Below are positions 20,507 to 36,816 of a DNA stretch of 51,059 nt, piece after piece. Below the pieces are notes generated by a model. The model was not told the DNA's origin and ran no database searches. It saw only the letters and a program-made list of their open reading frames with translations. A program made the translations under genes and the position numbers. Every line of letters starts with the position of its first letter. Within the stretch, counting starts at the first letter, position 1. The DNA comes from an uncultured Rhodobacterales bacterium (GTDB lineage: Bacteria > Pseudomonadota > Alphaproteobacteria > Rhodospirillales > CAJXLG01), in the NCBI GenBank assembly GCA_964535075.1, contig CAZHRQ010000002.1:1-51059 (forward strand), in the 5' to 3' direction.

Positions 20507-20830
20507 TCACGCCGGCGTGGGCCAGAACTCCGGCGTGAACAGGCGCATGGAAACCTGGGTGGCGGCCCCCGCATTCTGCAAGGTGCCGCGCACGCTGTGG
20601 CCCTCCACTTCCAGCTTGGTGACACCCTTGGCGGTGAAGGTCAGGTCCTCGGCCTGGAACCACGCACTGCCATCGGGCGACAATTCCAGCACCGCCGTGG
20701 CGCCATCGAAGGTCCCCCACACGTACAGGGTTCCGGTCAGCGGCGTGTCGCCTCCGTCGTGATGGCCGGCGGCCAGCTTCAGCACGCCGCTGCTGCCATC
20801 GGTGGTGGCATCGGTAAGCAGGGAAATCAT
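20507..20830 (-). CDS. phage hypothetical protein (last gene of the tail-fibre module)
   Basis: 107-aa ORF co-directional with and closely following the fibre genes. No family recognised. Confidence 0.55.
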   Translation of the reverse strand: MISLLTDATTDGSSGVLKLAAGHHDGGDTPLTGTLYVWGTFDGATAVLELSPDGSAWFQAEDLTFTAKGVTKLEVEGHSVRGTLQNAGAATQVSMRLFTPEFWPTPA

Positions 20831-20854
20831 CGGCCTTCGCCCTTTCTGTTCTGA

Positions 20855-21208
20855 TTACGCCGCGGAGACCACGGCCAGGGTATCGCTGCGCCGCCAACTG
20901 GTCCCGTCGGAAAAGGCCAGACAGGCGGCGCCGGCGGCGCCGTCGTCGCACAGCACCACCCCCGCGTGATGGCTGGACGCCGGCGGCAACGTGGCCACGG
21001 TATAGCGCGGCGCGTCATAGATGCCTTCCGCCCCGTCGGTGGTGGCCGGGGTTCCGTCGGCGCGCGCCAGGGCGAAACCGCCGGCGGTGGTGCCGTCGTG
21101 CACCACCAGGGTCTGACGATCGGTATCCACCGTCACCTCGCGCGCGGCACCGGTGAAGGAGGCATGGGTGGCGGTGGTGCCGCCGCGCAACTGCAACACA
21201 TCGGGCAT
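20855..21208 (-). CDS. phage tail-fibre-like protein with Mtd/HylP-type N-terminal motif
   Basis: The N-terminus LQLRGGTTATHASFTGAAREVTVDTDRQTLVVHDGTTAGG resembles the QLRRGT...GE..vDTD...k.GDG motif of phage tail-fibre and major-tropism-determinant N-termini. The start shares a base with the upstream stop. Confidence 0.6.
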   Translation of the reverse strand: MPDVLQLRGGTTATHASFTGAAREVTVDTDRQTLVVHDGTTAGGFALARADGTPATTDGAEGIYDAPRYTVATLPPASSHHAGVVLCDDGAAGAACLAFSDGTSWRRSDTLAVVSAA

Positions 21209-22179
21209 CAGGTCAGTCCTCCCAGATCATGGCGGGTGGCCCCCCGGGCCAGGTCCACCTGGCGCAGCCGGCTCCCCTCGCCGGCAAAGACGGGGGTAGG
21301 CGGGGTCAGGGGCCCCAGATCGGTCAAAACGGCGGGACCGAGCGCGGTCGCCCCCTCCACATAACGTTCCCACTTGTCGCCAGCGAAGGGACTACCGGCG
21401 GTGTGGGCGGTGAGACAGTGGTAGCCGTGGCCGCCGGGCCCCACCACCACGTCGCCTTCGGCATAGGTCGCCCCGGGCTGCCAATCGCCCCGGGGCACAG
21501 TGAGGCCGGGCGCCCCCTGCGGCCCCTGGGGTCCACTGGCACCGGCCACCGCGATCTGCCAGCCCTCGGCATCGCCGGCCCCCGGCGTTTCGGTGACCGC
21601 CACCGTGAGCCACCACACGCCATCCCCGTCCGCCGCAAAGTCGGTCACGGTTCCGCCCAGGCTCAGGGTACCGTCGTCGCTCACCGCCTGTACCCCGGCG
21701 CCCGGGACGAAGGGGGCGCCCGACGGCACCTCGAACACGGCCGGATCGTCGGTGGCCGCCACGACGGAGGGCGACGGCACCCGGGCGCCGCCGAATAGCT
21801 GCCACGCCCCCAGACGCTGATCGGTCCACCACCACGGCGCGGCCGTGTGTTCGCTCAGGCACAGGAAAGGCACGCCGTTCACCCGCACCAGATCTTGGGG
21901 TTGGTAAAGCTGGCCACTCACCCAGTCCCCCCGGGGCGCCAGGCGGGTGGCCGGCAGGGCGAAGGTGCCGTAGTGGGTGCCCTGACTGCCCCAGATGTCC
22001 ATGGCGGCGCCGGTGACGGTGATGGTCTCGATGGACTCGCCGGTGAAGGAAAGGTCCTGCAGGGCCTCCACGGCCTGCTTCACGGCCCACCAGTTGCCGT
22101 CGATTTCCGCCACGGTCAGCGGCGTCCCCTTGCCGGCCCCCCAGGCCCCGGCATCGCGAAAGGTCAAGGTCACGGGCAT
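21208..22179 (-). CDS. phage tail fibre / receptor-binding protein with two CBM5/12-like repeats
   Basis: Two copies of PRGDW..G..Y...D.V...G..(Y/F).CL..HT resemble carbohydrate-binding module 5/12. There is also a short collagen-like GPQGPQGAPG stretch. Confidence 0.6.
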   Translation of the reverse strand: MPVTLTFRDAGAWGAGKGTPLTVAEIDGNWWAVKQAVEALQDLSFTGESIETITVTGAAMDIWGSQGTHYGTFALPATRLAPRGDWVSGQLYQPQDLVRVNGVPFLCLSEHTAAPWWWTDQRLGAWQLFGGARVPSPSVVAATDDPAVFEVPSGAPFVPGAGVQAVSDDGTLSLGGTVTDFAADGDGVWWLTVAVTETPGAGDAEGWQIAVAGASGPQGPQGAPGLTVPRGDWQPGATYAEGDVVVGPGGHGYHCLTAHTAGSPFAGDKWERYVEGATALGPAVLTDLGPLTPPTPVFAGEGSRLRQVDLARGATRHDLGGLT

Positions 22180-22185
22180 GATGGT

Positions 22186-24936
22186 CTACTCCGATTGTTC
22201 GGCAAGCGGACGCACCCGCCAGGGCAGGACGCGGGCGGGCACCACATGGTGGCGCCCCTCGCGCAGCCACAGGCGCTGCCACTGGTTGGTGGCGGGGTCC
22301 ACCCGACAGAGTTCCGAGCGGTACCGCACCTCCCACTGGTCCTCCGCCACCGCGATGTATCCCTTCAGCACCGAATTGGCCAACAGCCCGCCATCGGCGG
22401 TGGCACGGAAGCCCGGATCGGCCAGTTCGTGGATGGCGGCGGCGTACCAGTGCGCCGGCGGGGCCGCCCACCGGGTGGGATACTGGGTCCAGGTCCGCCC
22501 CTGGTTGCCGGAATAAAGCCAGTAAGTGGTCCGGGTGTGGGTCCACACCATCACCGCCAGCCCCCCATCGCCCAACACCACCGGCGGCCGGGTCGCCGTG
22601 GGGCCACCATTGGGCCCCTCCGCCCCGGCGGTGTGGGTCACGAGGAAAGGCACGTCGGCGGTGGCCTCTGCTTCGGCCATGGCCGTCACCCAGCCCCGGG
22701 CCAGATACTGCTCCATGTCCAGACCACGCAGGGGCGCTTCGGGCAGGCACTGGGCAAAACCGTGCACGTCGGCCAGGCGGGGCCCCGGCGGGCTGGTGAG
22801 CGGGGGCGTGACGGGTGTCTGGACCTCGTACCAGGCCAGATCGGGGGTGCCCTCACTGTCCAGAGCGAGCCAGCGGACCCACGCCCCCACCGGCAGAAAG
22901 CCCGGATCGTAGGACCCGGCCAGGGGGGCCGTAAGGCGGCGGCCATCAGGAGTCTCCACCACGAACCAGGGCACCGGTGGCCAGGTGGTGGCCGTGCCGG
23001 CCAGCAGGTCGGCTTCGTCGGCGGCCGCCGACGGCCGACAGGCGGCATGGGTGATGTCCGCCAGCGAGACCACTTTCCCCACCGCCTCCGCCGGTTCTCC
23101 CAGGGGGTCGGGCACGAAGGCGGTGGTGACCCGGTACCAGGCGGTGGTCCAGTGCACGCGGTCGGTGACGGTGTCCCGCCACAGCCGCACGTGTCGCACC
23201 ACGGCGCCGGCGGGCACCACGCGGGTATCCATGCGCGGATCCGGGGGCACCAGAGTCCGGGCCCCAGCCACGGTGTCGTTGATCCACCACCAGGGTTCCA
23301 GCTCGGCCCAAAAATCCCGCGCCACCCGGAAATACCGGATCAGGGTCCCCTCGGCCGCGCCGGGATAGTCGTTGCAGACCACGGTGATCACCGCGCCCTC
23401 GGAATAGGGCATGGCCGCCATGCGATCGTTGCGAGGGATGGGGTCGTGGTCCCAATAGACGGTGCTGTGGTGGTCGGGCCGCAGCGTGACGAAGGCCTCC
23501 TGCGCCGGCATGGCGGCGGTGTACTGGCCCCGTTGCAGGTGAATGGTGGCCGGGTGGTTGTCCTCCTCCGGTTCCCCGTACCGGGCCAGCCAGGCCACCG
23601 TCCACCCGGCGGGCATGACCCAGGTATGCCCATAGGGCGCCCGGCGCAGGGTGGGGGAGGCCGTTTGGTCGGGGGGCGGTGTGCCGCCGGTCCACACGGG
23701 GGTCCAGGCCAGCCCGTCCTCGGACCGCCACAGGGCCTCGCACGTGGTGCCCTGGCTGTCATCCCCCACCCGCCAGGGCGGGCCCGGCTCCACCCCGAAC
23801 ACGTGACGGCGCTGCCGCTGCCGCCCTCCGGCCAGGAAGCCGTCGCTCAGCGCCACCACCCATTCCGGATGCCGTTCTTCCACCGGCACCGGTGCCCACG
23901 CCCACGCGCCGCCATCCCCGGGGACGACCGTGGGGTCGCCAGAGGAATCCCGGCACCGGCGCGGCACGGAAAGGCTGTCCAGCCAAGCCGAGCCCCCCTC
24001 GCTGCCGTCGCCCCCTGCGGCCCACAGGTTGCCATGCCAGCGATGGGCCTGGCACCCCACGAAGGGCCGGTTGCAGCCTGAGGGCACCCAGGTTTCCTCG
24101 GTGATCTCCAAGCCAGTCCAGACAAAGGGCTGGCCGGGCGCATCGGCCCGGCCGGCGGTGTTTTCGCCCACCATCACGAAGCCTCGCTCGGGGCTTACCA
24201 CCCCGGCCAGCACCGAGCGGTTCACCCGTACCTCCGCCTCGGTGCGCCAGCCCCAGCCACCGGCGAGGGCCGGGGCACGGACACTGCTGGCCAGATCCTC
24301 CCGGGCCAGCACCGCGGGCGCTGGGACCTCGGCGCTCAGCGCCCACACCACCGGCCCCGGTGTGCCGTAGACCGAGGGCGGTGACGGCAGGGCCAGCGGA
24401 TAGCCCGCGGACACACTGGCCAGCGGCAGGCTGTCCCAGGCGGCCACCAGGGCCGCGCTGGGCATGTGATCATAAAAAACGCCATTCACGACCCAGGTGC
24501 GCCCGGTCAGGTCCGGTTCCTGGGTGTCATAGTGCACCACGGCCGTCATCACCTCCCCGGTGGCCCCGTCGGGATCCATGGGAAACAGGGGGTGCGGCCC
24601 GGTCTCGGGTCGGATCCAGCCCTCGGCAAAAGTGCTGCTGTCCCAGACCGTGCCGCCATCGCCGCGCACCAGGGTGAAGGTGCCGTACTCGGCCTCCAGT
24701 CCCAGCAGCCGCTGACGGGCGGGCAACAGGGCGGCACTGGCCAGCAACGCCCCTTCGCGACCGGTGGGGCCCTCCGCCGCCCAACCGATGCCCCAGCCGG
24801 TAACCGCATCGGCACCCGGCAGCACCTGCCAGGTCGTACCCTCCGCCCCGTCCCCGACCGCCTGGCGGGGTGTGGGACGCCCCGGCCGCAACAGGGCGGT
24901 GCGCAGGGTGACGGATCCGGCGGTATCACCGATCAT
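22186..24936 (-). CDS. large phage tail protein (tailspike or host-specificity candidate)
   Basis: 916 aa from the ATG at 24936, which forms an ATGA overlap with the upstream gene. It is Trp/Gly/Thr-rich and looks beta-rich, with Asp-box-like motifs SGNQGRTW and RGDGGTVW. Confidence 0.6.
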   Translation of the reverse strand: MIGDTAGSVTLRTALLRPGRPTPRQAVGDGAEGTTWQVLPGADAVTGWGIGWAAEGPTGREGALLASAALLPARQRLLGLEAEYGTFTLVRGDGGTVWDSSTFAEGWIRPETGPHPLFPMDPDGATGEVMTAVVHYDTQEPDLTGRTWVVNGVFYDHMPSAALVAAWDSLPLASVSAGYPLALPSPPSVYGTPGPVVWALSAEVPAPAVLAREDLASSVRAPALAGGWGWRTEAEVRVNRSVLAGVVSPERGFVMVGENTAGRADAPGQPFVWTGLEITEETWVPSGCNRPFVGCQAHRWHGNLWAAGGDGSEGGSAWLDSLSVPRRCRDSSGDPTVVPGDGGAWAWAPVPVEERHPEWVVALSDGFLAGGRQRQRRHVFGVEPGPPWRVGDDSQGTTCEALWRSEDGLAWTPVWTGGTPPPDQTASPTLRRAPYGHTWVMPAGWTVAWLARYGEPEEDNHPATIHLQRGQYTAAMPAQEAFVTLRPDHHSTVYWDHDPIPRNDRMAAMPYSEGAVITVVCNDYPGAAEGTLIRYFRVARDFWAELEPWWWINDTVAGARTLVPPDPRMDTRVVPAGAVVRHVRLWRDTVTDRVHWTTAWYRVTTAFVPDPLGEPAEAVGKVVSLADITHAACRPSAAADEADLLAGTATTWPPVPWFVVETPDGRRLTAPLAGSYDPGFLPVGAWVRWLALDSEGTPDLAWYEVQTPVTPPLTSPPGPRLADVHGFAQCLPEAPLRGLDMEQYLARGWVTAMAEAEATADVPFLVTHTAGAEGPNGGPTATRPPVVLGDGGLAVMVWTHTRTTYWLYSGNQGRTWTQYPTRWAAPPAHWYAAAIHELADPGFRATADGGLLANSVLKGYIAVAEDQWEVRYRSELCRVDPATNQWQRLWLREGRHHVVPARVLPWRVRPLAEQSE

Positions 24937-25433
24937 AGGGGCCCCCGATCCAGGCCCCGCACGAAGCCGAACCACGTGGCCACCGGATCCAGCCACAGCA
25001 GGGTGGCCACCCCGAACCCACCGCTCACCGGCGTCGCATCGGGCAACACCCCGCCATCCCACAGCACCGGCACCCCCCAGGTGACCTGAAAGGCGCCGGG
25101 CGGCATCTGTTCCCAGATCACGGTCAGGGTCCAGGCCCGCAGATCGTCGGCCTCCGCCTGCCGGGGCGGGGTGCGGAGCCGCAAGGTCACATCACCGGCC
25201 AGCCGCAGATGGTGCACGTTGGCCTCGGTCACATCCAGGAGATGCACGCCGTTCACCGTGGCGCTGAGCACCCGTTCGCTGTAGCCGGCCAGGGGACCCT
25301 CCGGCCGAGGGCTCTCGGCCGGGGGTGGGGGTTCGGGCGTCGGCGGCTGCATGGACCAGACCGGTACCCCGCCATGCTGGCCACCGGTGCGGGGCACGGC
25401 GGCGGGGGAACCGTCACGCAGGACCCGGGTCAT
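24933..25433 (-). CDS. phage virion-associated hypothetical protein
   Basis: 166-aa ORF inside the operon with a Pro-rich N-terminal third. No family recognised. Confidence 0.5.
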   Translation of the reverse strand: MTRVLRDGSPAAVPRTGGQHGGVPVWSMQPPTPEPPPPAESPRPEGPLAGYSERVLSATVNGVHLLDVTEANVHHLRLAGDVTLRLRTPPRQAEADDLRAWTLTVIWEQMPPGAFQVTWGVPVLWDGGVLPDATPVSGGFGVATLLWLDPVATWFGFVRGLDRGPL

Positions 25434-25451
25434 GGCGATCTTCCTTTTTCA

Positions 25452-27365
25452 TCATTCTTCCAGGGGGGTGGCGAGATCGAGGGTGGCGGGCAGGCCCACC
25501 GGGCCCGTGGGGGTCACGGTGATGGTGTGGGGCAGCACGTCCACGGCGGTGAGCGGCGTGAGCGCCAGGGCCACGTCACTGGGCACCGCCTGCACCTCCG
25601 TCGGCGGCCAGAAACCGATGCGCTGCCGTTCCCACAGCCAGGCTTCCTGCTCGGGCGCCAGATTCACCAGGCAGAGCCGCTCCAGGAACTCGTTTTCGGT
25701 CATGTGCGGCAAGGCGACCAGGCCCAGGGTGGGCGCCTGATCGCCGGGATCGTGATAGGTCACGGGCACGTCGCCATGGCTGTCACGCACCGCCCCGGCG
25801 GGATGCGCATAGACCCCAGGCGCGCTGTAGTCGGGACCATAGGGATCGTTCAAAACAGCGGGGTCCAGGGTGCTCCCGGTGCCGAGGGATGCCGCCAGGG
25901 TCACCTCCAGCGCCGGCACGCCGTGATCCCAGATCAGGGCCAGGGCCACCACCTTGCCCGTGGCCTGTCCCCCGGGCAGCCGGGGGGAGTCCAAGGTCAG
26001 GGTGGAATCACAGGTCACGTCCAGGGTGCGGGCCGTCCAACCGGGCAGCCGGGCGGCGATGCGCACGGCACGCTGGCTGCGGGCCAGGGTCACCGCCGCC
26101 AACTGCACCGCATGGTCCAGCGCCTGCCGGCCGCGATCCGTGAGAAAGAACCCGGCGCGGCGCGCATCGCCCACAGGCGGGGTGCCGGCGGGGGGCGCGG
26201 GAGGCGTGGGATTGGTCTCCTCCTCGCGGGCCCGGGCGATGAGACTGAGGCAGTCGGCGGGCAAGGGATCGTCGGGCAAGGTGACCGCAGCCGCCGGCAC
26301 CGCCGCCACGTCCCCCAGATCAAACCAGAGGTGCGGCTGAGTGGCGTCGGGCCCTTCCGCCGTATCCTGGGCGGCCCCCACCAGGGTGAGGGTCAGGTGT
26401 TCCTCCCGCTTCTGCCGGTAGTGCCAATCCACGAACAGTTGCGGATCGTAGGTCCGCTTGCGCAGGCTCACCAGGGAGCCGCCCGTGCTGTACCAGGGGG
26501 AACGGCCGGAACGGCCACTGAAATTCCACGGCCCGTCATGATCGTCCATCATGGTATAGCGGGCTTCGTAGGGCATGTGAGGATCGGCCGGCGGCGGCAT
26601 TTCCACCAGCGCGGCCTGTCGGACGCGATAGCCCGTGTCGCTGCCCAGGCTCTCCCCGGCCCGGGGCCAGCCGGCGGCGAAGGACTCGGGCGGCGTGAGC
26701 GTTTGCAGCGGCCCGCCATTCTGGCGCCAGATCTCCCGCCCCAGGTTGAGGGTGCCCCGCCCCTCCTGATGCCAGCGGGCGGTGGCGGTGAGGGTCACCT
26801 GATGATAGGGCGGCGCCGCCAGCCACCAGCGCACGCTGTCGGCGGCCACGGCGGCACGGGTGACGTGGTCCGTGTGACCACCGGTGGTGTCGTGGGACAC
26901 GGCCACCGTCCCGTCGCGACGATCGGTCCACAGATGGCGCAGCCAACCGCGCAACACCACCTCGGGATCATCCTCGTCGCCGTCCCGCACGAACAGGGAA
27001 TCGTATCCCGGCCCCACGCGGAACGGGGCCAGGGCGGCGGCGGTGGCGGCGGCATGGTCGCCCAGCCGCGCTTCAAAACGCAGGGTCAGGGTGCCCGTGC
27101 CCATCACCACCGGCGCCGCCATCAGCCGGCCACGAAACAGAGGCCGGCAGATGCCCTCCACGGTGGCGCTCAGCAAGGCATGGGCGGCGAGCCCGGGCAC
27201 GATCAGCGCCCGGTCGGGGGTGGCCAGGGTCACCTCCGCCGTGGGCACGGCCCCTTCCGCCTCCCGCACCACCACGTGATGCACCTGTTCATCGGCGCGC
27301 GCGTGGGCCCCCGCATCGAAGGGCTCATCGGGAGTCACCCAGGCAAAATGAAGCTGGGCAGCCAT
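25452..27365 (-). CDS. phage tail/virion protein of unknown family
   Basis: 637-aa ORF in the operon between the head-completion genes and the large tail protein. It is not alpha-helical or Gly/Ala-repetitive like a tape measure. Confidence 0.55.
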   Translation of the reverse strand: MAAQLHFAWVTPDEPFDAGAHARADEQVHHVVVREAEGAVPTAEVTLATPDRALIVPGLAAHALLSATVEGICRPLFRGRLMAAPVVMGTGTLTLRFEARLGDHAAATAAALAPFRVGPGYDSLFVRDGDEDDPEVVLRGWLRHLWTDRRDGTVAVSHDTTGGHTDHVTRAAVAADSVRWWLAAPPYHQVTLTATARWHQEGRGTLNLGREIWRQNGGPLQTLTPPESFAAGWPRAGESLGSDTGYRVRQAALVEMPPPADPHMPYEARYTMMDDHDGPWNFSGRSGRSPWYSTGGSLVSLRKRTYDPQLFVDWHYRQKREEHLTLTLVGAAQDTAEGPDATQPHLWFDLGDVAAVPAAAVTLPDDPLPADCLSLIARAREEETNPTPPAPPAGTPPVGDARRAGFFLTDRGRQALDHAVQLAAVTLARSQRAVRIAARLPGWTARTLDVTCDSTLTLDSPRLPGGQATGKVVALALIWDHGVPALEVTLAASLGTGSTLDPAVLNDPYGPDYSAPGVYAHPAGAVRDSHGDVPVTYHDPGDQAPTLGLVALPHMTENEFLERLCLVNLAPEQEAWLWERQRIGFWPPTEVQAVPSDVALALTPLTAVDVLPHTITVTPTGPVGLPATLDLATPLEE

Positions 27366-27369
27366 GGGC

Positions 27370-27882
27370 CTACACTTCCTCCAGGGTCAGGGACCACGGG
27401 GTGCGGGCATCCCACTCCTGCCATTCGGCGGCCCAGGACACCACCCGCATGCTCAGAACGGGGCGATAGAACACCACCACCGGCCCGTCGCCATGCGCGG
27501 CCACGGTCACCTCGCGGCCGGTGACCGCCAGCACGGCGTGGGACTCACCGGTGTCCGTCTCCGCCCGCACGCTGTCGGGGGCGGGATCGCGGTCCAGGGT
27601 CACGCCGGGAACGCCGCCGGCCAGCACCACCGCCAGTTCGTTGGCCAGGGTGACAGTGAGCGCGGTGCCCACCCGCAACCCGTCCAGGGCCGGCGGCCGG
27701 GCATCGTCACCGGACACCTCCAGGCGATAGGGATCACGGACGGGCCCCGTATGGTGCAGATGCCCCTCCTGATCCCGCCACAGACTGCCCCGGGGCACGG
27801 GGGTCAGGCGATGGCGCAAGCCCCGGGCGGACCAGGGGACCAGCAGCGCCGGGCTTTCCAGTTCCAGCGTGGTGGCCGTCAT
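27370..27882 (-). CDS. phage hypothetical protein
   Basis: 170 aa from the ATG at 27882, which shares one base with the upstream stop (TGATG). Confidence 0.55.
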   Translation of the reverse strand: MTATTLELESPALLVPWSARGLRHRLTPVPRGSLWRDQEGHLHHTGPVRDPYRLEVSGDDARPPALDGLRVGTALTVTLANELAVVLAGGVPGVTLDRDPAPDSVRAETDTGESHAVLAVTGREVTVAAHGDGPVVVFYRPVLSMRVVSWAAEWQEWDARTPWSLTLEEV

Positions 27883-28277: not shown

Positions 28278-28311
28278 GGCACTCTCCTGAACACAGGGGA
28301 AAGAGGGAAGG

Positions 28312-29177: not shown

Positions 29178-29191
29178 GGGCCCAACTCCCC

Positions 29192-29271
29192 GCTCTAAAA
29201 CAAACAGATAGAGCCGATTCACGCGGTCAATGGGCCCCGCAAATGGGTCCCATTAACCGTGATCAGCTCCA
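29192..29271. repeat. palindromic repeat, copy D (module-2 end + linker + module 1) inside the phage operon
   Basis: GCTCTAAAACAAACAGATAGAGCCGATTCACGCGGTCAATGGGCCCCGCAAATGGGTCCCATTAACCGTGATCAGCTCCA. It fills nearly all of the 98-nt gap between two phage genes. Confidence 0.85.
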
Positions 29272-29275
29272 GGGT

Positions 29276-30055
29276 TTATGCACCAGGCCAGATTTCGAGG
29301 ATGCCGAAGGGCGCCCCGGGCGTGTCGGGATCGGGTTCCAGATGCACGTCGAACAGCAGCCGTGCCGGGCTGTCCTCGGCGGGGGCAAGGCTCCAGGGCG
29401 CCGCCGGCCCCACCGCCACCCGGGGCATGTCCCAAAAGAGACCGGGGCCATCCCCGGGCGGCAGCACCAGCCGGGCGGCCCCGGGGATACGCACCCGGCC
29501 GCCCACCGCGAAACGGTCGTGGGCCGGCACGGCGCGGGGATAGCTCACCGCCAGCCACGCCGGATCGGCATAGGGCGCGCCGGCGGCCCGGGTGAGGGTG
29601 CCGGCGTCGGCATCCACGACCACCGTGGCGGGATCATAGGCGGCGCCCAGATCCCGGCTTTCCACGGCGGTAACGGCCCCGGCGGGCGGTTGCATCAGCG
29701 GCCAGGGGGTGGTGCCCGCCAGGTACACGGCCTCGCGGGTCACGGTCTCCTGGCCGGCGGCAGCGGGGCTCACCGCCTCCCCCAGCAGGAAGAGACGCAG
29801 GCTGTGCGCGGTGATGCTTTCGCAGGCCACCCGCAGCCGCCCCCCCTGAGGCCCCAGCACCCGCTCGGCCACCCGCCGGCGGCCGTTGGTGTCCAGGATA
29901 AGGCGTTCCCGATGGTCGTCGGTAACGTCCAGGCTTTCGGGCACCACGTGGCCCAGGGGCACGAAGGCCCCCAGGCTGTGATCGGCCGCCCGCTCGGCGA
30001 AGGCGAGACGCACCCCGCCGGGCCGCAACAGGTGGTCCAGGTCGGCGGCGATCAC
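29276..30055 (-). CDS. phage virion protein of unknown family (downstream of capsid gene)
   Basis: 259-aa ORF whose GTG start overlaps the upstream stop (GTGA). Its position suggests a decoration, cement or tail-proximal protein. Confidence 0.5.
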   Translation of the reverse strand: MIAADLDHLLRPGGVRLAFAERAADHSLGAFVPLGHVVPESLDVTDDHRERLILDTNGRRRVAERVLGPQGGRLRVACESITAHSLRLFLLGEAVSPAAAGQETVTREAVYLAGTTPWPLMQPPAGAVTAVESRDLGAAYDPATVVVDADAGTLTRAAGAPYADPAWLAVSYPRAVPAHDRFAVGGRVRIPGAARLVLPPGDGPGLFWDMPRVAVGPAAPWSLAPAEDSPARLLFDVHLEPDPDTPGAPFGILEIWPGA

Positions 30056-30243
30056 GGTTGCGCCTCCTGCTGCAACACCCGACGCAACAGCACCGCCCGG
30101 CTTTCCCGGGCGGCCACGGGTTCGTCATGCTGTTCCAGCCACTGCTTGAGCCGCGCCCGGGTCCAGGTGCGGGGGTCCTCGCGGGGGGACGGCGGCGGCC
30201 GGTCGGGTCGGCGCCGGCGCAGGTTGTGTCCGGTCAGGCTCAT
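30052..30243 (-). CDS. small phage protein with HeH/SAP-like motif
   Basis: 63 aa. TRARLKQWLEQHDEPVAARESRAVLLRRVLQQ resembles the helix-extension-helix motif often found just after capsid genes. Confidence 0.4.
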   Translation of the reverse strand: MSLTGHNLRRRRPDRPPPSPREDPRTWTRARLKQWLEQHDEPVAARESRAVLLRRVLQQEAQP

Positions 30244-30253
30244 GGCCGGGGCC

Positions 30254-31246
30254 TCACAGGTTGGTGATCAGAGCGGCCAGGGGCACCTGTTTTCGGGAAA
30301 ACACCCGCCCCCAGTTGGCGCCGGTGGCCAGGGCGCTGTTGGCGGGGGAGATGCCGGTGGAGAGGTCGCCCACGTAGCTCATGCCCAGGGGATGCAGGCA
30401 CACGTGGCGACGGCTGACGAAGTACTCGATGCCCTCGCCATTGCCGCCCAGTTCGTCGCGGTCGATGGCCACCGGCACCCGGGGGGCCCCCTCGCCGTAG
30501 ACGATGGCCCCGCGCCCGAACAGCCACGAGCTGTAAGTGGTTTCCGAGCCGTTGGTGCCGGTGGGCAGCAGGTCCGACTGGATCAGGCGCATGCCCATGT
30601 AGGTGGGAATGGTGCCCAGCCCCTGGGATTCCGGCACGTAGTCGATGAGGTCGTTCTTCTGGATCTGCTGATAGACCTTGGAATGCACCACCATCACGGC
30701 GATGTCGTCGGCGGCATCGCCCAAGGTGCCCCGGGCCTCGATCACCGCCCCGGCGGACAGGCGGTTGGTGGCGCCGGGGGTGGTATCGGTGGAGATGTCC
30801 AGCACCGCGTCACTGGCCATGTCCGTTTGCTTGAACACCCCGTCCACCATCTTGATCAGGGCCGCCTGTAGCCGCCGGGTCCAGTAGGGCGCGATGCGAT
30901 CGGCCACCATGCGCATGGGATCGTCGCCGGCCACGGCGCCGGCCAGATCGGCGGCGGCGAAGGAGACGGCCCGGCGCAGTACCACCGCCGTCTGCTCGTC
31001 GCCCCCCACCTTGTACGGGGTGATGTTGGTATCGGGGTCATCGCTGGCCACGGCATCGTCGCCGTCCAGGTCGGCCCAAAAGGGCATGGTGACGGCGTGA
31101 CCGCCCTGGCGCAGGCGATCGGCCAGCACCGCATCCTCCCGCACCACCCCGGAGCGGAAAAAGGCCGACTGCTCGCGGGTGCGGGCCACCAGATAGGTCT
31201 GAAACACGTCGGGCACGATCACGTCACTGATCTGAGTGAGCGCCAT
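30254..31246 (-). CDS. phage major capsid protein
   Basis: 330 aa in the capsid position after the portal and scaffold-like genes. The N-terminus MALTQISDVIVPDVFQTYLV...SGVV and overall composition resemble HK97-fold coat proteins of short-tailed phages. Confidence 0.7.
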   Translation of the reverse strand: MALTQISDVIVPDVFQTYLVARTREQSAFFRSGVVREDAVLADRLRQGGHAVTMPFWADLDGDDAVASDDPDTNITPYKVGGDEQTAVVLRRAVSFAAADLAGAVAGDDPMRMVADRIAPYWTRRLQAALIKMVDGVFKQTDMASDAVLDISTDTTPGATNRLSAGAVIEARGTLGDAADDIAVMVVHSKVYQQIQKNDLIDYVPESQGLGTIPTYMGMRLIQSDLLPTGTNGSETTYSSWLFGRGAIVYGEGAPRVPVAIDRDELGGNGEGIEYFVSRRHVCLHPLGMSYVGDLSTGISPANSALATGANWGRVFSRKQVPLAALITNL

Positions 31247-31311
31247 GTCAGGGTCTCCTTATGAAAATCGCAAGCACTTGGGCGCCAGAGGCCGGTTCCG
31301 GGAGCGGACGA

Positions 31312-31794
31312 TCATCCTCCGGCCTGCTGAGCCAGCACGCGGGCCAGTTGCGGATTCTGGCGCATCAGTTCCCCCTGCCGGGTGAGATTAAAGCTTTCGG
31401 CGGCCCAGGGATTGGCCAGTCCGGGGGCGGCGGGCTCCCCGCTGCCGGGGGCGCCACCGCCGCCGGCGCCCCGGAAAAAGGGCGCCGGCACGGTCCCATT
31501 GCGGCGCATGTCGGCCAGCACCTCGGCCACGGACCGGGGCTGACCGGCCTCATCGGTGGCCATGGCGCCACTTTCGTCCAGGGCCACCACCGTGCCATCG
31601 TGCACGGACAGCCGCCCGGCCACATGGTCCACCAGGAAGGGCAGCATGGCCGGGTCCACGCCGGCACCCAGGGCGGCCTCGCGCACGGCGCCGTGGATCA
31701 GGTTCTGGTGATGCTCGGCCACCAGGGCTTCGTAGGCAGCTTCCACCTCGGCCAGCCGCTGGCTCAGGGCCTCGGGCTCGGGCATATCGGTCAT
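31312..31794 (-). CDS. phage scaffolding-like protein
   Basis: 160 aa with a helical acidic N-terminus and a Gly-rich C-terminus, located between the portal and capsid genes. Confidence 0.45.
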   Translation of the reverse strand: MTDMPEPEALSQRLAEVEAAYEALVAEHHQNLIHGAVREAALGAGVDPAMLPFLVDHVAGRLSVHDGTVVALDESGAMATDEAGQPRSVAEVLADMRRNGTVPAPFFRGAGGGGAPGSGEPAAPGLANPWAAESFNLTRQGELMRQNPQLARVLAQQAGG

Positions 31795-31827
31795 GGGTCA
31801 CACCTCCTGTGCGGAAAACGGGAAGAG

Positions 31828-33207
31828 TCAGGCGGTCCGGTCGGACTCGTCGGCGGGTTCGTCGGGCAGGCGCCCGCCCCGCCGCAGGTTCCAGGCCAGC
31901 ACCGAGTGGTCGAAGGCGCCGGCGCGCCACGCCTCGGTCAGGTCGCGCACGGCCTCGGGGCTGAGGGTGGCCTGGGTGAAATCGAGATTGGGCTCCACAC
32001 GTACCCGGGCGGGATCCTCGCCCAGCCAGCGGGCGGCGTGGCCCAGGGCCTGTTCCAAGGCCGCGGCCGTGGTCCGGGCCACGTCGGTGAGGCTCACGGT
32101 CTGGGCGGTGCTGCGCAGGCGCAGGGCCTCGGCGCTTTCCACGCCCCGTCCGCCCTCCAACAGCCGGGCCCCCATCTGCCACGCCTGGTCGTAGAGATCG
32201 CGGATGGCCTGCCGGTGGGCTTCGATGCCCTGGCCGTCCACTTCCAGGTAGAAAGCGCGGGCCTCGGGCGGCAGATACCAGATGGTGCTGGCGCCGATCT
32301 GTTCCGGCAGGCCGTCCTGGTTGTTCTCCACCCCGGCGATCACCGGCGTGGGCTGGGACGTGAGGAACAGCGCCTGCTTGTAGTCGGCGGACAGGCGATA
32401 GATGCGCAGGGCGATACGGGCCAGGGGCAGCAGGGGAATACGATCCGGCGCCGGGGTCAGGTCGGTGGCACCGGCGAAGACGAAGGGCAGCGCCCCCAGC
32501 CCGCCCGGATGCACGGGTCCCTCCCCGGTCAGGGCCGACGCCGGGGAACCGGCCCTTGCGGCCAAGGAACGGGGCTCGGGCCCCGGTCCGGCGGCCTGGG
32601 GCGGACTGCGCCACAGCCATTGGGTATAGCGGCCGTCCTCCAGGGACAGCACCCGCCACTGGGGCCGGATCACGTGGCCGAAGGGAGAGTGTCCGGGGCC
32701 ATCCACCTCCTCCCGCAACACCACCAGTTCCGGCACGGCGCCGCGCAGGCGCCAGTTGATCACGGCCTCGGCGGCATAGTCGGCCAGATAGAGCCCCTCG
32801 CCGTCGCCGGCCGGCCCCTCCACCAACAGCCCGTGACGGCCGGTAAGCAGCACGTTGCGGGTGATCCGGCGGTGCAGATCGGCCAGGGACAGGCCGTCGG
32901 GGGTGGCCTGGCGGCGCAGGGGCTCCAGGGCCGACGGCAGGGTGATGGTGGCCGGCTGGCGATGGATCAACCCCACGCAGGAATCCAGGGTCAACCGCAC
33001 CAGATCGGGAAAATCGGCCCGCAGACGATAAGCCTGATAGTCGGCATTGCGACCGGGGTCGGCCTCTTCCAGGCGCTGGCCCGGAGTCATGGGCAGGTAC
33101 AGGTCGCCCCGGGCCTTGATGGCGCTTTCCCCCTCCAGGCAGTCGCGCATGGTCTGCCAGTCGCCCAGGCGCTGGGCGGCCTGGGGGTGATACTGATCCA
33201 CCGACAT
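31828..33207 (-). CDS. phage portal protein (DUF4055-like)
   Basis: 459 aa immediately after terL (TGAATG junction). The N-terminal region ...YLPMTPGQ...YQAYRLRADFPDLVRLTLDSCVGLIHRQP resembles DUF4055-type portals. Confidence 0.7.
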   Translation of the reverse strand: MSVDQYHPQAAQRLGDWQTMRDCLEGESAIKARGDLYLPMTPGQRLEEADPGRNADYQAYRLRADFPDLVRLTLDSCVGLIHRQPATITLPSALEPLRRQATPDGLSLADLHRRITRNVLLTGRHGLLVEGPAGDGEGLYLADYAAEAVINWRLRGAVPELVVLREEVDGPGHSPFGHVIRPQWRVLSLEDGRYTQWLWRSPPQAAGPGPEPRSLAARAGSPASALTGEGPVHPGGLGALPFVFAGATDLTPAPDRIPLLPLARIALRIYRLSADYKQALFLTSQPTPVIAGVENNQDGLPEQIGASTIWYLPPEARAFYLEVDGQGIEAHRQAIRDLYDQAWQMGARLLEGGRGVESAEALRLRSTAQTVSLTDVARTTAAALEQALGHAARWLGEDPARVRVEPNLDFTQATLSPEAVRDLTEAWRAGAFDHSVLAWNLRRGGRLPDEPADESDRTA

Positions 33208-34554
33208 TCAATACACTCCCTTGATCCGGGCCTGTCCGGCGCGCGGGGTCTCCGGCGCCAGGAAACGAAAGGCGGCGGCCAGGGCATCCACCTGGTCGTC
33301 GTGGGCGCCCTTGGGAAAGGCTTCCAGTTCCCGCAGGAAGGGTTCGTTCCACGGACCGGCCACCAGGGCGAGGTTGCCCGCTTCCGCCTGGGCGGAGACG
33401 GGGGCGGCGCGCGCCTCCTTGGCGCCCTGTTCGGGACGGGCGCGCACCGTGAAGCCGGCCAGGGCGGCGGCCAGCCAGCGGGCCTGTGCCACCCCGGCCT
33501 GACCGGGATCCCGGGGCAGCACCACCGGCACCGCCACGCCATCGCTGGCGGCCACCCGCCGCAGGGCGGTTTCCACCTCCGCCGGCGAGCCCTGGAAACG
33601 TTCCACGTGCTCCACGGTGAAGCGGCCGGACTCATCCCGGGCCAGCCGCACCCCCACCGTCCAGTCGCCCCCGTCCCGGGTGGCGGCCAGATCCCAGGCC
33701 CGCACCCGCCGGGCGGTGACGGGGGCCTCGGACACGGTTGCCAGGAAACGGCGTTGGAAGTAGAGCCCCTGCGCCGGCCGCACATGCCAGTTGCCGCCCT
33801 TCAGCCGCTCCCGCTCCACCCGGGGCAGGGCATCCAGGTTGGCCAGATAGCCCGGGTCCTTGCGCAGCAGGATGCGGTTGTCGAACACGCTGGCGGCGAT
33901 GAAGGTCAGGGATTTGGGCCGGGTATCGGGGCCAAAGCGCTGCACCAGGGTTTCCGGCCGGTCGGCCCACACCAGATCGTCCTCATGCCGCACGAACCAG
34001 CGCAGGCGCCCGGCCCGTTCCGGCACGGGATAGCCGTCCTCGCCGATCCACCAGGCAATGAGTCGGGCCACGAAGCTGTCGGGATCGGGGTTGCACGTCG
34101 CCCGCACATAGGGCCGCACCCCGCAGGCACTGCGATTGCGGCCCAGCAGATAGAAAAACTGGCCCTCGGAAAAATGGGTCAGCTCGTCGAAGCCCAGCAA
34201 CGGGATCTGCGCGCCCTGCCAGTCATAACGGGTGCGCTCGTGCTCCAAGTGCGCGAACTTAACCCGGCTGCCGGCGGGAAAACGCCACTCCAGCAGGCTT
34301 TCCCGGGGGGTGCCTCCCAGGGGTGCATAGAGCCGGGCGCTTTCGTCCCACAGCCCCCCCTCGTTGCGTACCTGCACGGCGGTGCGGCGGAAAATCACGG
34401 CCCCGAACCCGGGATGGGCGGCGTGGCGCAGGGGTTCGGCCAGCAGCGCCCACGACTTGCCGCCACCGGCCGCCCCGCCATAGATGGCGATATCGGCGGC
34501 GCTGGCCAAGAAGCGTTCCTGCGGCCCCGGTTGCGGCCGCAGCCCGCCGCTCAT
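33208..34554 (-). CDS. terL: phage terminase large subunit
   Basis: Walker A IYGGAAGGGKSW, Walker B-like LLGFDELTHF, and a C-terminal nuclease region (DLAAT ... DDQVDALAAAF). The start ATG at 34554 forms an ATGA overlap with terS. Confidence 0.9.
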   Translation of the reverse strand: MSGGLRPQPGPQERFLASAADIAIYGGAAGGGKSWALLAEPLRHAAHPGFGAVIFRRTAVQVRNEGGLWDESARLYAPLGGTPRESLLEWRFPAGSRVKFAHLEHERTRYDWQGAQIPLLGFDELTHFSEGQFFYLLGRNRSACGVRPYVRATCNPDPDSFVARLIAWWIGEDGYPVPERAGRLRWFVRHEDDLVWADRPETLVQRFGPDTRPKSLTFIAASVFDNRILLRKDPGYLANLDALPRVERERLKGGNWHVRPAQGLYFQRRFLATVSEAPVTARRVRAWDLAATRDGGDWTVGVRLARDESGRFTVEHVERFQGSPAEVETALRRVAASDGVAVPVVLPRDPGQAGVAQARWLAAALAGFTVRARPEQGAKEARAAPVSAQAEAGNLALVAGPWNEPFLRELEAFPKGAHDDQVDALAAAFRFLAPETPRAGQARIKGVY

Positions 34555-35087
34555 GCCTCGTCCTCCCCGTCCTCTGTATCCCCGTCCTCTGTGTCCCCGT
34601 TCGGCATGGACCGTCCGTTGTCCGGCAGATAGAGAGTGACGGCCAGGTCCGCCGTCTCGTCGGCGGCCCCGGGACCCTCGAACAGGCCCAGATGCCGGCT
34701 GAGGCAATCCAGCGCGCCCTTCTTATCGTGCAGTTTTACGGTGACGGCATCGCGGCCCCGGCGCACTTCGGCCACGGCGGCGGCGGCATCGGCGTCCAGG
34801 TCCTCGCTGGGCAGGGGCACCACCGACTCGCCATCCCAGCGGCACACCTGCCGCAGATCGGCATAGGCCAGGCGGGCGTATTCCCGCAGCACCCGATCGG
34901 CGGTGATGCCGGTGCGGCGGCTTTGTTCCGCCCGGGCCGCCGCCAGGGCGGCGCGAATGTCGGCGCGTTGCAGCAAGCGCGGCCCTGTGCGCCCGGCATA
35001 GCCTGCCCGGCGGGCGGCGGCGGCCGCGTTATGGTCCACGAGAAACTCTTCCACAAACCGGCGATGCCGGGATGTCAGGCCGTCCAT
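34551..35087 (-). CDS. terS: phage terminase small subunit
   Basis: RHRRFVEEFLVDHNAAAAARRAGYA ... ITADRVLREYARLAYAD ... DKKGALDCLSRHLGLF is Terminase_2-like. GGGAG lies upstream of the ATG at 35087. Confidence 0.85.
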   Translation of the reverse strand: MDGLTSRHRRFVEEFLVDHNAAAAARRAGYAGRTGPRLLQRADIRAALAAARAEQSRRTGITADRVLREYARLAYADLRQVCRWDGESVVPLPSEDLDADAAAAVAEVRRGRDAVTVKLHDKKGALDCLSRHLGLFEGPGAADETADLAVTLYLPDNGRSMPNGDTEDGDTEDGEDEA

Positions 35088-35175: not shown

Positions 35176-35217
35176 CCCGATTGGGCGCGATCGGCTCTAA
35201 AACAAAGGGAGAGAGCC
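35176..35217. repeat. truncated palindromic repeat, fragment E (module-2 end + linker)
   Basis: CCCGATTGGGCGCGATCGGCTCTA + AAACAAAGGGAGAGAGCC. It lies in the leader between the terminator and terS. Confidence 0.7.
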
Positions 35218-35242
35218 ACTTCGTTGAGGGCGGATCGCCCAT

Positions 35243-35278
35243 AAAAACCCCCCCGGCGGCGATCCGTCGGGGGGGGGG
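35243..35278 (-). terminator. rho-independent terminator between the 203-aa gene and terS
   Basis: On the minus strand a C-run/G-run stem (CCCCCCCGACGG ... CCGCCGGGGGGG, one mismatch) is followed by TTTTTAT. Confidence 0.7.
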
Positions 35279-35338: not shown

Positions 35339-35383
35339 GAGATACGCTAATTGCCCCCGCCCTGTCAAGAACAAAAACAGAAC
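35339..35383 (-). promoter_or_regulatory. SOS-box-like GAAC-N7-GAAC (35369-35383) abutting a candidate promoter (TTGACA 35368-35363, N18, TATCTC 35344-35339)
   Basis: The plus strand reads aGAACaaaaacaGAACatt. On the minus strand this is GTTC-N7-GTTC, immediately followed by TTGACA. Confidence 0.45.
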
Positions 35384-35410: not shown

Positions 35411-36022
35411 TCAGGCTGCCTTCCAGCCCCGCACGTGGCAGTAGGCATTCAGGGCGCGGAACAGCTCCCGACGGGCCCAGCCCTTGCGACGGGCCTGGGC
35501 CCTGTCCATCATGGACAGGCTTTCCCCTCGCACCATGAGCGCCACCACCACGTCGTGGGCGATGCCCTGGGCCTGGCACCGTTCCACCCAGGCCACCCAG
35601 TGGGCCCGCTGGCGGGGGTTCACCGTCTCCAACGGGGTTCCGGTGTGGGCGCGATGGGTCACCGGCATTCCGTCGTAGGCGCTCACCCGGGTGCTGACCG
35701 GCCGCAGCAACCGCTCGGCACACTCGCCCAGGGTGGTCAGGGCCCGTTCCTGGTCGGGGTCCAGGGCCCGCCACAGGCGGGCATCCACCCGGCGGCGGCG
35801 CACCTTCTCCGCCTCGCGGGAGTCGCCAAGGAGCACCACCCGCTCCGTGGGGTGATGGGCTTCCTGCCAAGCGGCGGGAGAGCGGTGGGTGTGGCACCAG
35901 CGGTCCCGCTCCGCCTGCAAACGGGCCTGGAGACCCTTGCTGTGGGCCAGCGCCTCCCGGGCCTCCCACGAGGGATGGGCGGGGTCGAACGCTGGGGTGC
36001 AGTCTCTTCTGGATGCGGGCAT
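35411..36022 (-). CDS. phage regulatory protein candidate (203 aa; possible late-gene activator or antiterminator)
   Basis: The ATG at 36022 is preceded by AAGGAG at 8 nt. It is the only gene between the repressor and the structural operon. The C-terminus (GESLSMMDRAQARRKGWARRELFRALNAY) looks like an HTH or sigma-region-4-like helix pair. Confidence 0.5.
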   Translation of the reverse strand: MPASRRDCTPAFDPAHPSWEAREALAHSKGLQARLQAERDRWCHTHRSPAAWQEAHHPTERVVLLGDSREAEKVRRRRVDARLWRALDPDQERALTTLGECAERLLRPVSTRVSAYDGMPVTHRAHTGTPLETVNPRQRAHWVAWVERCQAQGIAHDVVVALMVRGESLSMMDRAQARRKGWARRELFRALNAYCHVRGWKAA

Positions 36023-36046
36023 GGCCAACACTCCTTATGCGTGCCA

Positions 36047-36090
36047 GAACATTATGAGAACACTATGCCGCATGATTACGTTTTTCGCAA
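36047..36090 (-). promoter_or_regulatory. SOS-box-like GAAC-N7-GAAC (36047-36061) overlapping a candidate leftward early promoter (TTGCGA-N17-CATAGT)
   Basis: AGAACATTATG and AGAACACTATG form a tandem 11-bp repeat. On the minus strand the -35 TTGCGA is at 36090-36085 and the -10 CATAGT at 36067-36062. Confidence 0.5.
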
Positions 36091-36126
36091 TATCGCTGGC
36101 GCGCCGGATTAGCGAAAATCGCATGC

Positions 36127-36816
36127 ATGATGGAACAGCCCTGGATCGCCCAACGGCTGGAGACTCTGGGACGCACCCGGCGGGAGCTGGCCCGCGCCCT
36201 GGGGGTGGATCCGGCCCGAATCAGCGAGATCCTCGCGGGACGCCGCCATGTGAAGGTGCGGGAGGTTCCGGCCCTGGCCCGCTTCCTGGACATGGATGCG
36301 GGGGTGGTGCTGTTGCGCCTGAACGGGGAGGCACCGGCCGCACCGCCGCCCACGGTGACGGTGCCGGTGGTGGGGGCGGTTCAGGCCGGCGCGTGGGCGG
36401 AGGCCATGACCTGGCCGCCGGAGGACCGATACCCGGTGGTGGTGCCACCGCCGCACGGGGGGCGGGAACCGTTTGGCCTGGTGGTCCGGGGCCAGTCCAT
36501 GAATCTGGACTACCCGGAGGGGACCATCCTGATCTGCGTGCCTTTTCTCCACTACGCCCGGACCATTGGCGAGGGAGACCATGTGGTGGTGCACCGCCGC
36601 GACCGTACCGGGTTGATGGAGGCAACGGTGAAGGCGCTGGTGATCGACTCGGCGGGGCACCGCTGGCTGTGTCCCCGTTCCAGCGACCCTGCCCACCAGA
36701 CGCCGCTGCCGCTGCCGGCCACGCCCCCGGATGCCCAGGACCACGCCGGCAACGACGACATTCAGGTGGTGGGGGTGGTGGTGGCCCACTACCGGGCCCA
36801 TCCCTCCGCCCCCTGA
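36127..36816 (+). CDS. phage CI/LexA-like repressor (XRE HTH + S24 peptidase)
   Basis: N-terminal HTH (RRELARALGVDPARISEILAGRR), a candidate Ala-Gly self-cleavage site (AVQAGAW), the catalytic Ser in VVRGQSM and the Lys in TVKAL. It is divergent from the 203-aa gene. Confidence 0.88.
   Translation: MMEQPWIAQRLETLGRTRRELARALGVDPARISEILAGRRHVKVREVPALARFLDMDAGVVLLRLNGEAPAAPPPTVTVPVVGAVQAGAWAEAMTWPPEDRYPVVVPPPHGGREPFGLVVRGQSMNLDYPEGTILICVPFLHYARTIGEGDHVVVHRRDRTGLMEATVKALVIDSAGHRWLCPRSSDPAHQTPLPLPATPPDAQDHAGNDDIQVVGVVVAHYRAHPSAP

Follow-up and report, generated by a model that had tools for sequence, protein, structure and literature searches.

Can a phage-derived locus that retains a head-and-tail operon and a repressor, and has no genes of its own for integration, replication or lysis, still be at work in its host? 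The question is raised by the 51,059-bp assembly contig CAZHRQ010000002.1 of an uncultured Rhodobacterales bacterium (65-72% G+C), which was analysed over its whole length and is referred to here as the window. An element of ~16 kb lies at 20507-36816 and comprises 17 virion genes on the minus strand, one further gene upstream of them (g18), and a divergently transcribed repressor gene (g19; numbering as in Table 1). The best explanation is that the element is an immobilised ("grounded") prophage derivative, and it is probably still expressible. For the full reading, in which a DNA-damage switch, a late regulator and a complete virion operon have all been kept in usable form, we see about an even chance. 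The operon itself is best explained as that of an uncultivated phage lineage, in which a head and neck of the SPP1 type are joined directly to a siphovirus tail tip (g11, g12, and the fibres g13-g17).

As far as the window shows, the element has no means of its own to integrate, excise, replicate or lyse its host, as had been proposed in an earlier reading of the same sequence made without database searches (hereafter the original prediction). Profile searches of all 19 proteins against Pfam and PHROG, even at E-values up to 1, detected no integrase, recombinase, replication protein, holin, endolysin, tail tube or tape-measure protein. A hydropathy scan found no convincing membrane segment in any of the 19 proteins, and the sole peak, in the head closure protein Hc1, is an Ala/Val-rich stretch; there is thus no holin candidate. 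The gap between g18 and the repressor gene, where a conventional prophage has its early region, measures only 104 nt. At the other end, the viral contig L056 from IMG/VR continues past its homologues of g15, g16 and g17 with genes for a collagen-like fibre, a fibre chaperone, a lysozyme, Rz and an integrase, and these are absent past g17 in the window. Because the early region and the lysis and integrase genes are missing at separate places, a normal prophage would have had to suffer several separate losses, all sparing the switch and the late operon.

What has been kept is largely intact. The virion stretch (20507-35087) has a coding share of 98%, its intergenic gaps measure between -4 and 98 nt, and its 15 kb of structural genes show neither frameshifts nor premature stops. 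All 17 co-directional open reading frames (ORFs) of the original prediction, from terS to the 107-residue gene g17, exist, and every coupled junction and short gap that it listed is present: ATGA at 34551-34554, 28674-28677 and 24933-24936, GTGA at 30052-30055, TGATG at 27882 and 21208, and TGAATG at 33205-33210. Two starts were corrected. The start of g08 was moved to 29177, as the Pfam match begins at residue 16 and the part upstream lies inside a host repeat, and g10 most likely starts at 28277 (ribosome-binding site AGGAGA). Nine proteins are within 5 residues of the lengths of their homologues in L043, an 11-kb contig without visible host genes that carries the nearest relative of the element (capsid identity 65%). 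The protein identities to L043 are 37-65%, a distance at which synonymous sites would be saturated.

The operon resembles host DNA as well. The G+C content at third codon positions (GC3) is 0.857 for the element and 0.863 for the host genes, relative synonymous codon usage (RSCU) correlates at 0.98 between element and host (0.989 between two halves of the host genes), and tetranucleotide frequencies correlate at 0.97-0.98. Composition is even across the element junctions. The base composition and codon usage of the element are therefore host-like, which the original prediction had judged by eye, and two sites in the cluster do carry the host repeat family, one as a full copy and one as a related hairpin (Table 1).

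The arrangement of the tail genes sets the particle apart from ordinary siphophages. The tail terminator gene (g10) is followed at once by g11, in the position of a distal tail (Dit) gene, and by g12, in the position of a Tal gene. The reading frames of g10 and g11 share 1 nt, and only 4 nt separate g11 from g12, which leaves no room for tube or tape-measure genes. The original prediction expected a podovirus-like architecture. A short tail is indeed what the missing tube and tape-measure genes point to, but the parts are those of a siphovirus (Ad1, Hc1, terminator, Dit-position protein and hub) and not an adaptor and nozzle; the genes in its parts list are real, and the tail-terminator gene of the neck and the long-tailed-phage tip genes had been missed. 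To judge from these genes, the particle would be short-tailed but made of siphovirus parts.

Neither g11 nor g12 matches a family or a PDB sequence. A four-sequence AlphaFold model of g12, of low confidence (pLDDT 52.7), was compared with the PDB by Foldseek, and the top 44 matches were all hub, spike or baseplate-tip entries, with E-values down to 4.5e-8, a probability of ~1 and a TM-score of only ~0.2. These matches range over phage tails, tailocins, contractile injection systems and type VI secretion systems, including Mu gp44, T4 gp27, VgrG and siphophage tail tips, and the BFVD viral structure library returned the same hub class. With moderate confidence, we take g12 to be a gp27/Tal-like hub. 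The relatives of g11 include a 173-residue protein of L043 (58% identity), a 165-residue protein of L002, and a 295-residue protein of L005, whose C-terminal half it matches with 45% identity. In the viral contigs L056, L057 and L062, a tape-measure gene stands directly before the g11 homologue, and the L057 and L062 contigs also have a gene for a major tail protein further upstream. By this order, g11 and g12 occupy the places that Dit and Tal genes have in ordinary siphophages. The g11-g12 pair was found in 12 IMG/VR contigs, 11 of which also encode a homologue of the N-terminal 100-200 residues of the fibre protein g15, a segment that is conserved in L002-L005 too.

A tail terminator gene followed by a Dit-position gene, with no tube, chaperone or tape-measure gene, is present in the window and in L043/L044, L055, L002-L004 and L005, that is, in at least five contigs. 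In L005 (1803-2690) the two are a single ORF of 295 codons, with a Tail_completion_gp17 domain at residues 9-109 and a g11-like Dit-position domain at residues 130-295; such a fusion makes sense only if both rings touch. The tube-less contigs have two terminator families (PF13554 and PF11367) and different capsid types, and capsid identity within the lineage of the window alone is 39-65%. Recurrence with different heads and terminator families, together with the fusion, suggests that the tube-less layout is a stable and presumably functional design and not the result of local decay. Nothing relevant to a siphovirus-type tail without a tube, or to a gene transfer agent (GTA) of podovirus-like build, turned up in literature searches. 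It is conceivable, if rather improbable, that all these loci represent an undescribed kind of tailed particle, with a siphovirus tip bolted onto the terminator, and that the element is a captured form of it, a transducing agent wired to SOS/LexA control and unable to move itself. As separate observations, an EamA-family transporter is encoded on the opposite strand between the Dit-position and hub genes of L002 (5615-6589; also in L003 and L004), and in L055 the same two genes are separated by one for a 597-residue tail collar fibre protein (7496-9289; phrog_910, E 2e-82).

The control region suggests how the operon could be switched on. Upstream of terS there are indeed only two genes, as the original prediction had noted, namely the 203-codon g18 and the divergent repressor gene g19, and the g19 protein keeps the Ala-Gly cleavage site (VQA/GAW), the Ser (GQSM) and the Lys (TVKAL) of autocleavable repressors. 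The exact motif GTTCN7GTTC is found just twice in the 51-kb window, both times in a regulatory gap of the element. By gap shuffling, the chance of a match is 0.003 for the 104-nt gap with box 1 and 0.008 for the gap with box 2, or jointly ~2e-5, and the background is about 1 per 50 kb across 946 kb of fetched loci. GTTCN7GTTC is the SOS/LexA box of Caulobacter (PMC9578287). These two putative SOS boxes of the alphaproteobacterial type could place production under host regulators, yet the element keeps a repressor of its own. Boxes of this type were also considered as an intrinsic part of g18-family promoters, and this was rejected, as they are absent beside the g18 homologues in L050-L054.

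Between box 2 and terS, 65-120 nt past the TTGACA element, there is an intrinsic terminator within a 76-nt stretch that folds at -34.3 kcal/mol. g18 has homologues in ~165 representative clusters; it has no Pfam match, and a PDB search with the g18 family profile was empty. In the viral contigs L050, L051 and L054, the g18 homologues are located 1.6-4.3 kb upstream of terS/terL, and the one in L051 follows a DnaA_C-type gene. This is the classic position of a late-gene regulator, and we regard g18 as a candidate for that role.

From these features, the following course of events may be envisaged. In undamaged cells g19, probably together with the host LexA, would shut both the g18 promoter and the late promoter, with LexA acting on the two GTTCN7GTTC boxes. 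Upon DNA damage, active RecA would cause the repressor or repressors to cleave themselves. g18 would then be made, and RNA polymerase would start at the late promoter, read through the terminator before terS in the manner of lambda Q, or both. Judging by gene content, the 17 coupled genes would build heads and short tails. Without excision or replication, the Terminase_6-type enzyme would package the chromosome in place, from near terS toward bamD-recN-ligA, and the particles would then be filled mainly from the host chromosome, as happens in lateral transduction and with GTAs. Release would require lysis genes located outside the window.

Several points weigh against an expressible prophage derivative. 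The scaffold protein matches only positions 116-261 of the 263 in the phrog_206 profile, and the N-terminal ~110 residues of its relatives (271-300 residues) are missing, which could disable head assembly. The window has none of the lysis genes that release needs. The SOS motif is assumed from other alphaproteobacteria and may not be that of the host LexA, and no such box precedes recN in the window. The -10 element of the putative late promoter (TATCTC after 18 nt) is weak, and g18 has no recognisable domain. The hub assignment depends on the low-confidence g12 model, and the single-sequence AlphaFold model of g11 was unusable (pLDDT 38) and was not used. No tail-tip particle without tube and tape measure has been described, and DNA delivery by one may be impossible. 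Finally, this is the single known instance of the element.

The same gene content could belong to an inert prophage that was recently truncated by deletions, perhaps between host repeats, which took the integrase, early/replication and lysis genes and left an operon that has not yet decayed. Cryptic prophage remnants are very common. The short scaffold gene fits this account, as do the lysozyme, Rz and integrase genes found beyond the g17 homologue of L056, after two fibre-related genes, where the window stops at g17. So do the broken lpxC-bamD adjacency, which is otherwise conserved and suggests a rearrangement here, the 95%-identical repeats that bracket the entire island, the absence of a second copy of the element from the collections searched, and the hub gene of L001, which persists alone among host genes. 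On the other hand, the truncation would have taken two or three separate deletions at the least (past the repressor, in the repressor-g18 interval, and past g17), each sparing the switch, g18 and 17 late genes, and 15 kb have remained without a frameshift or premature stop. The host repeats have had time to enter two gaps, and SOS boxes of the host type stand at both regulatory gaps although none is found beside g18 homologues elsewhere. We consider an inert remnant a possible but doubtful explanation. The original prediction had itself named a full ~40-kb prophage with the same module as a reason for doubt, and one exists in part: the 38-kb L056 has homologues of g11, g12 and g15-g17, a tape measure, lysozyme, Rz and integrase, and its force as an objection is limited by identities of 32-53% and a different head. 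A true GTA of a new type, inherited vertically, selected by the host, packing random or neighbouring host DNA and delivering it by a short tail to the periplasm alone, while lysis and uptake functions are encoded elsewhere, would share all the support of the immobilised, expressible prophage; it is counted as a subset of that reading, so that our weights need not sum to 1. Its content parallels the Rhodobacter capsulatus GTA (RcGTA) cluster in being restricted to head and tail genes (the RcGTA lysis genes are encoded elsewhere), the SOS-type boxes make the control region look host-wired, host repeats and host codon usage point the same way, and the missing tape measure would fit delivery through an uptake system of the recipient, as in RcGTA. 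The tube-less L005 locus is chromosomal; the end with its Hydrolase_2/GTA_holin_3TM pair directly adjoins host prkA and carries no integrase, a single observation which hints that chromosomal immobile versions may recur. Against a true GTA stand the lack of a near-identical copy, with no close host relative in the collections, a phage-type repressor of its own that described GTAs do not keep, and the lack of any match to RcGTA-type families. Moreover, a capsid of the SPP1 type normally holds ~40 kb or more, which exceeds the element, and the rule that the capsid is smaller than the locus may fail here. We think a true GTA unlikely.

Two further accounts carry little weight with us. The element might depend on a helper, a co-resident phage or another locus that supplies replication, excision and lysis while it contributes its own capsid and tail tip. 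Capsid-forming satellites are known, and an element that kept packaging and virion genes without autonomous functions would suit such a life; known satellites, however, keep an integrase, a replication module and a packaging signal of their own and have no full tails, nothing among the window proteins resembles satellite modules, and no att-like direct repeats turned up besides the host repeat family, which makes this very improbable. Equally hard to credit, if not slightly more so, is a contig mis-joined at near-identical repeats, with a larger real prophage. The bamD-hemJ island is bounded on both sides by 64-nt repeats of 95% identity (19133-19196 and 36857-36920), and the window is the entire assembly contig, but the longest exact run that the two repeats share is 29 nt, which is short for a graph collapse, the sites where genes would be expected to be missing (between the repressor and g18, and beyond g17) are not at repeats, and composition is uniform across the junctions.

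Comparison with known systems leads to a similar placement. With RcGTA the element shares a chromosomal, co-directional, packed head-tail cluster of ~15 kb with no integrase, replication or lysis genes inside, an alphaproteobacterial host, and the order terS-terL-portal-capsid-adaptor-closure-terminator-...-Dit-hub-fibres. It differs in having an SPP1 gp13-type capsid with a scaffold instead of an HK97-type capsid with a protease, no tube, chaperone or tape measure, and its own CI-like S24 repressor. No RcGTA-type family was matched among the 19 proteins, and the element does not belong to the RcGTA family. In the general sense, it is a phage-derived chromosomal structural cluster unable to replicate, excise or transfer itself, like a GTA; and like a defective prophage it has lost integrase, early/replication and lysis genes, while the relative L056 carries lysis and integrase genes beyond its g17 homologue. 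The short scaffold (160 residues) is a possible sign of decay; the reading frames are unbroken and nine lengths match those of relatives. The element is best filed as of the defective-prophage/GTA-like kind.

PBSX of Bacillus has an Xre repressor, the late factor Xpf and a terminase-first late operon; it is SOS-inducible, has no integrase or replication genes, and its particles carry host DNA. The window has a repressor, one regulator (here putative) and a terminase-first operon without integrase or replication genes, a likeness of architecture only, as PBSX has a contractile tail, a lysis cassette of its own and a Gram-positive host, and neither Pfam nor PHROG links its regulators to g18 or g19. 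In the R- and F-type pyocins, the autocleavable S24 repressor PrtR is encoded beside the small activator PrtN, and the structural cluster is turned on after DNA damage. This repressor-plus-activator layout is again similar by architecture only; pyocins have no head or packaging genes, and g18 does not match PrtN. The segment of lambda that contains Q, PR' and tR' offers a parallel for the control region, with a regulator, a promoter, an intrinsic terminator at the distance given above, and late genes; antitermination here is suggested by position only, and g18 has no similarity to Q-family proteins.

Among virions, SPP1 is similar in its gp13-type capsid and in its scaffold, portal and Ad1/Hc1/terminator neck, which come in the same order, but SPP1 has the tube protein gp17.1, chaperones and the tape measure gp18 before Dit and Tal, whereas the terminator of the window is directly followed by the Dit-position gene, and the window scaffold is much shorter. 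The temperate siphophage contig L056, together with L057 and L062, has homologues of g11, g12 and the N-terminus of g15 in the same order (L056 also of g16 and g17), and differs in the major tail protein, chaperone and tape measure directly before the g11 homologue and in unrelated head genes, with identities of 27-53%. Four other classes were rejected. A podovirus tail of the T7 or P22 type does not agree with a neck of Ad1, Hc1 and tail terminator and a distal part of Dit-position protein and gp27/Tal-like hub, and no podovirus tail family was matched. A long siphovirus tail would need tube, chaperone or tape-measure genes, for which there is neither a match nor room between terminator and hub. 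A tailocin would not have the terS, terL, portal, scaffold and capsid genes, all present and intact here, and a capsid-forming satellite of the cf-PICI type would have integrase and replication genes, which are missing, and no tail-tip and fibre genes, which are present.

Were the element still able to fire, it would offer a rare view of a prophage midway between a virus and a tool of its host, in which the selfish functions have been lost and the damage switch and particle factory have been kept, and it would move neighbouring host genes on the bamD, recN and ligA side and not itself. The tail made of terminator, Dit and Tal without tube or tape measure, which occurs behind heads of more than one type and in one case as a fused protein, suggests a route from long-tailed to short-tailed phages, and raises the question of how DNA would cross the envelope without a tape measure. 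Should the captured-particle reading be true, GTA-like elements would have a second, independent origin in Alphaproteobacteria, with a short tail that perhaps delivers only to the periplasm. An inert element would only add to the many cryptic prophages and be of little importance. Two new features are worth following up, the regulator-terminator control region flanked by SOS boxes and the tube-less terminator-Dit-Tal tail.

Table 1. Positions of the genes and control features of the element, in window coordinates, with the evidence for each.
Feature	Position	Strand	Evidence or remark
g19, CI/LexA-like repressor, predicted autocleavable	36127-36816	+	HTH_3 and Peptidase_S24; phrog_4 E 7e-23
Inverted repeat, candidate repressor operator	36071-36129		arms 36071-36088 and 36112-36129, 78% complementary
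SOS-box-like repeat 1 (GTTC-N7-GTTC)	36047-36061	-	right after TTGCGA-17 nt-CATAGT promoter-like site 36090-36062 reading into g18
g18, 203 aa, candidate late-gene regulator (activator or antiterminator)	35411-36022	-	position; conserved helix-turn-helix-like C-terminal motifs
SOS-box-like repeat 2	35369-35383	-	abuts perfect TTGACA -35 (35368-35363) reading toward terS
Intrinsic terminator between g18 and terS	35243-35275	-	G+C-rich hairpin, then UUUUUAU
Hairpin in terS leader, related to host repeat family	35190-35222		family D9, copies 29188, 35190, 36836
terS, small terminase	34551-35087	-	PF03592 E 7e-25; phrog_51
terL, Terminase_6-type large terminase	33208-34554	-	Terminase_6N and Terminase_6C, full length; phrog_979 E 5e-158
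Portal	31828-33207	-	DUF4055; phrog_145 E 2e-104, full length
g04, scaffold protein, short form, 160 aa	31312-31794	-	phrog_206 E 9e-18
g05, major capsid protein, SPP1 gp13 type	30254-31246	-	PF20036; PDB 4an5, 6r3a E ~1e-62; phrog_247 E 4e-101
g06, 63-aa conserved small protein	30052-30243	-	60-aa ORF at same place in L043, L044
g07, 259-aa conserved virion-module protein	29276-30055	-	41% identical to L043 261-aa protein carrying PF27730 UCP028589
Full copy of host 64-nt palindromic repeat	29209-29272		inserted in g07-g08 gap
g08, head-tail adaptor Ad1	28674-29177	-	PF20557 E 1e-35; phrog_477 E 5e-45
g09, head closure Hc1 (weak call)	28312-28677	-	phrog_161 E 5e-4; same position in L043, 121 aa
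g10, tail terminator (tail completion)	27882-28277	-	PF13554 E 1e-6; phrog_179 E 3e-9
g11, 170-aa Dit-position (distal tail) protein	27370-27882	-	position of homologues; similarity to L043 and L005
g12, 637-aa putative gp27/VgrG/Tal-like central tail hub	25452-27365	-	Foldseek of low-confidence model
g13, 166-aa tail protein, fibre-type C-terminal domain	24933-25433	-	phrog_24774, phrog_7760
g14, 916-aa large distal tail protein	22186-24936	-	37% identical to partial L043 homologue
g15, fibre protein, N-terminal anchor and two CBM_5_12 modules	21208-22179	-	PF02839 x2
g16, Mtd_N-domain tail protein	20855-21208	-	PF18454 E 4e-15; phrog_9648; 53% identical to L056 homologue
g17, 107-aa last operon gene	20507-20830	-	40% identical to L056 homologue; no family match

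Some details of the virion proteins supplement the table. The terL sequence contains Walker A (GAAGGGKS) and DE motifs, and the capsid protein is ~40% identical to those of many cultured siphophages. g13 has matches in four podophage-size genomes and one Microcystis phage genome, and g14 has no Pfam, PHROG, PDB or cultured-phage match. g07 was considered as a displaced tube protein because of a weak phrog_807 match (E 0.011) and was rejected after hhalign against the major-tail proteins of relatives gave a probability of 3%. A diversity-generating retroelement, of the kind linked to Mtd_N domains, was rejected too, as there is no reverse transcriptase and g16 consists of the N-terminal domain only.

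No close relative of the host is present in the collections searched. A HemJ scan of GTDB species genomes returned 34 loci, with a best identity of 62% and none with any neighbouring gene in common with the window, and the best identity in a BamD search of 5.8 billion proteins was ~70%. No second, near-identical copy of the element was found in any collection searched; single-protein capsid scans yielded three short contigs in JGI metagenomes and zero in IMG/VR, and tblastn of g11, g12, g14, g15, g18 and the L062 hub against 50,697 cultured-phage records gave no match. In L043, three small ORFs without a Pfam match (141-1691), and not a portal or terminase gene, fill the 2.2 kb that precede the scaffold gene, so its head-gene order differs from that of the window. 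In L001, an isolated hub homologue survives as a remnant among host genes, and an EamA-family transporter gene (837-1784) is found 1.8 kb upstream of it.

The flanks are host DNA, as the original prediction had read from recN and bamD on the left and hemJ and pckA on the right. The left flank encodes LigA, RecN and BamD, and the right flank HemJ, a FecR-like protein, PckA, LipA, LpdA and PdhC/B/A. A 64-nt palindromic host repeat, similar to repetitive extragenic palindromic (REP) elements, has copies at 9130-9164, 17989-18052, 19133-19196, 29209-29272 and 36857-36920 and a partial one at 47656, and a second small hairpin sometimes precedes a copy. The copies at 19133-19196 and 36857-36920 enclose everything between bamD and hemJ. 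ARAGORN reported a 98-nt tRNA-Ala at 42264-42361, which was considered as an integration site; it lies inside lpdA, and Rfam finds no tRNA in the window, so it is almost certainly a false positive.

Downstream of g17, and before bamD, are two small genes on the other strand (19434-19775 and 20065-20415, +), paralogues that encode secreted Cys-rich proteins of 113 and 116 residues. Each is followed by a strong terminator, and both lie in DNA of unusually low G+C content (0.58). Their products have no Pfam, NCBIfam or phage match, and they could be prophage morons or host genes. In the relative L049 (67% BamD identity) the order is lpxC-bamD-recN-ligA, whereas at 18912-19200 of the window the repeat, the two small genes and the element stand on the side where L049 has lpxC, which indicates a rearrangement at the bamD locus. 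Three tandem 30-nt repeats are located at or upstream of the bamD 5' end (18894-18987), and they would encode a repeated PQPNAALK-like stretch in an ORF overlapping them upstream of bamD. On the right flank, a 129-residue ORF (37515-37904) and the FecR-domain protein gene (37801-38781) have an 80-nt repeat in common, 76% identical, which encodes a Gly-rich C-terminal tail (EYTP.DDGGDRDG...GGGG).

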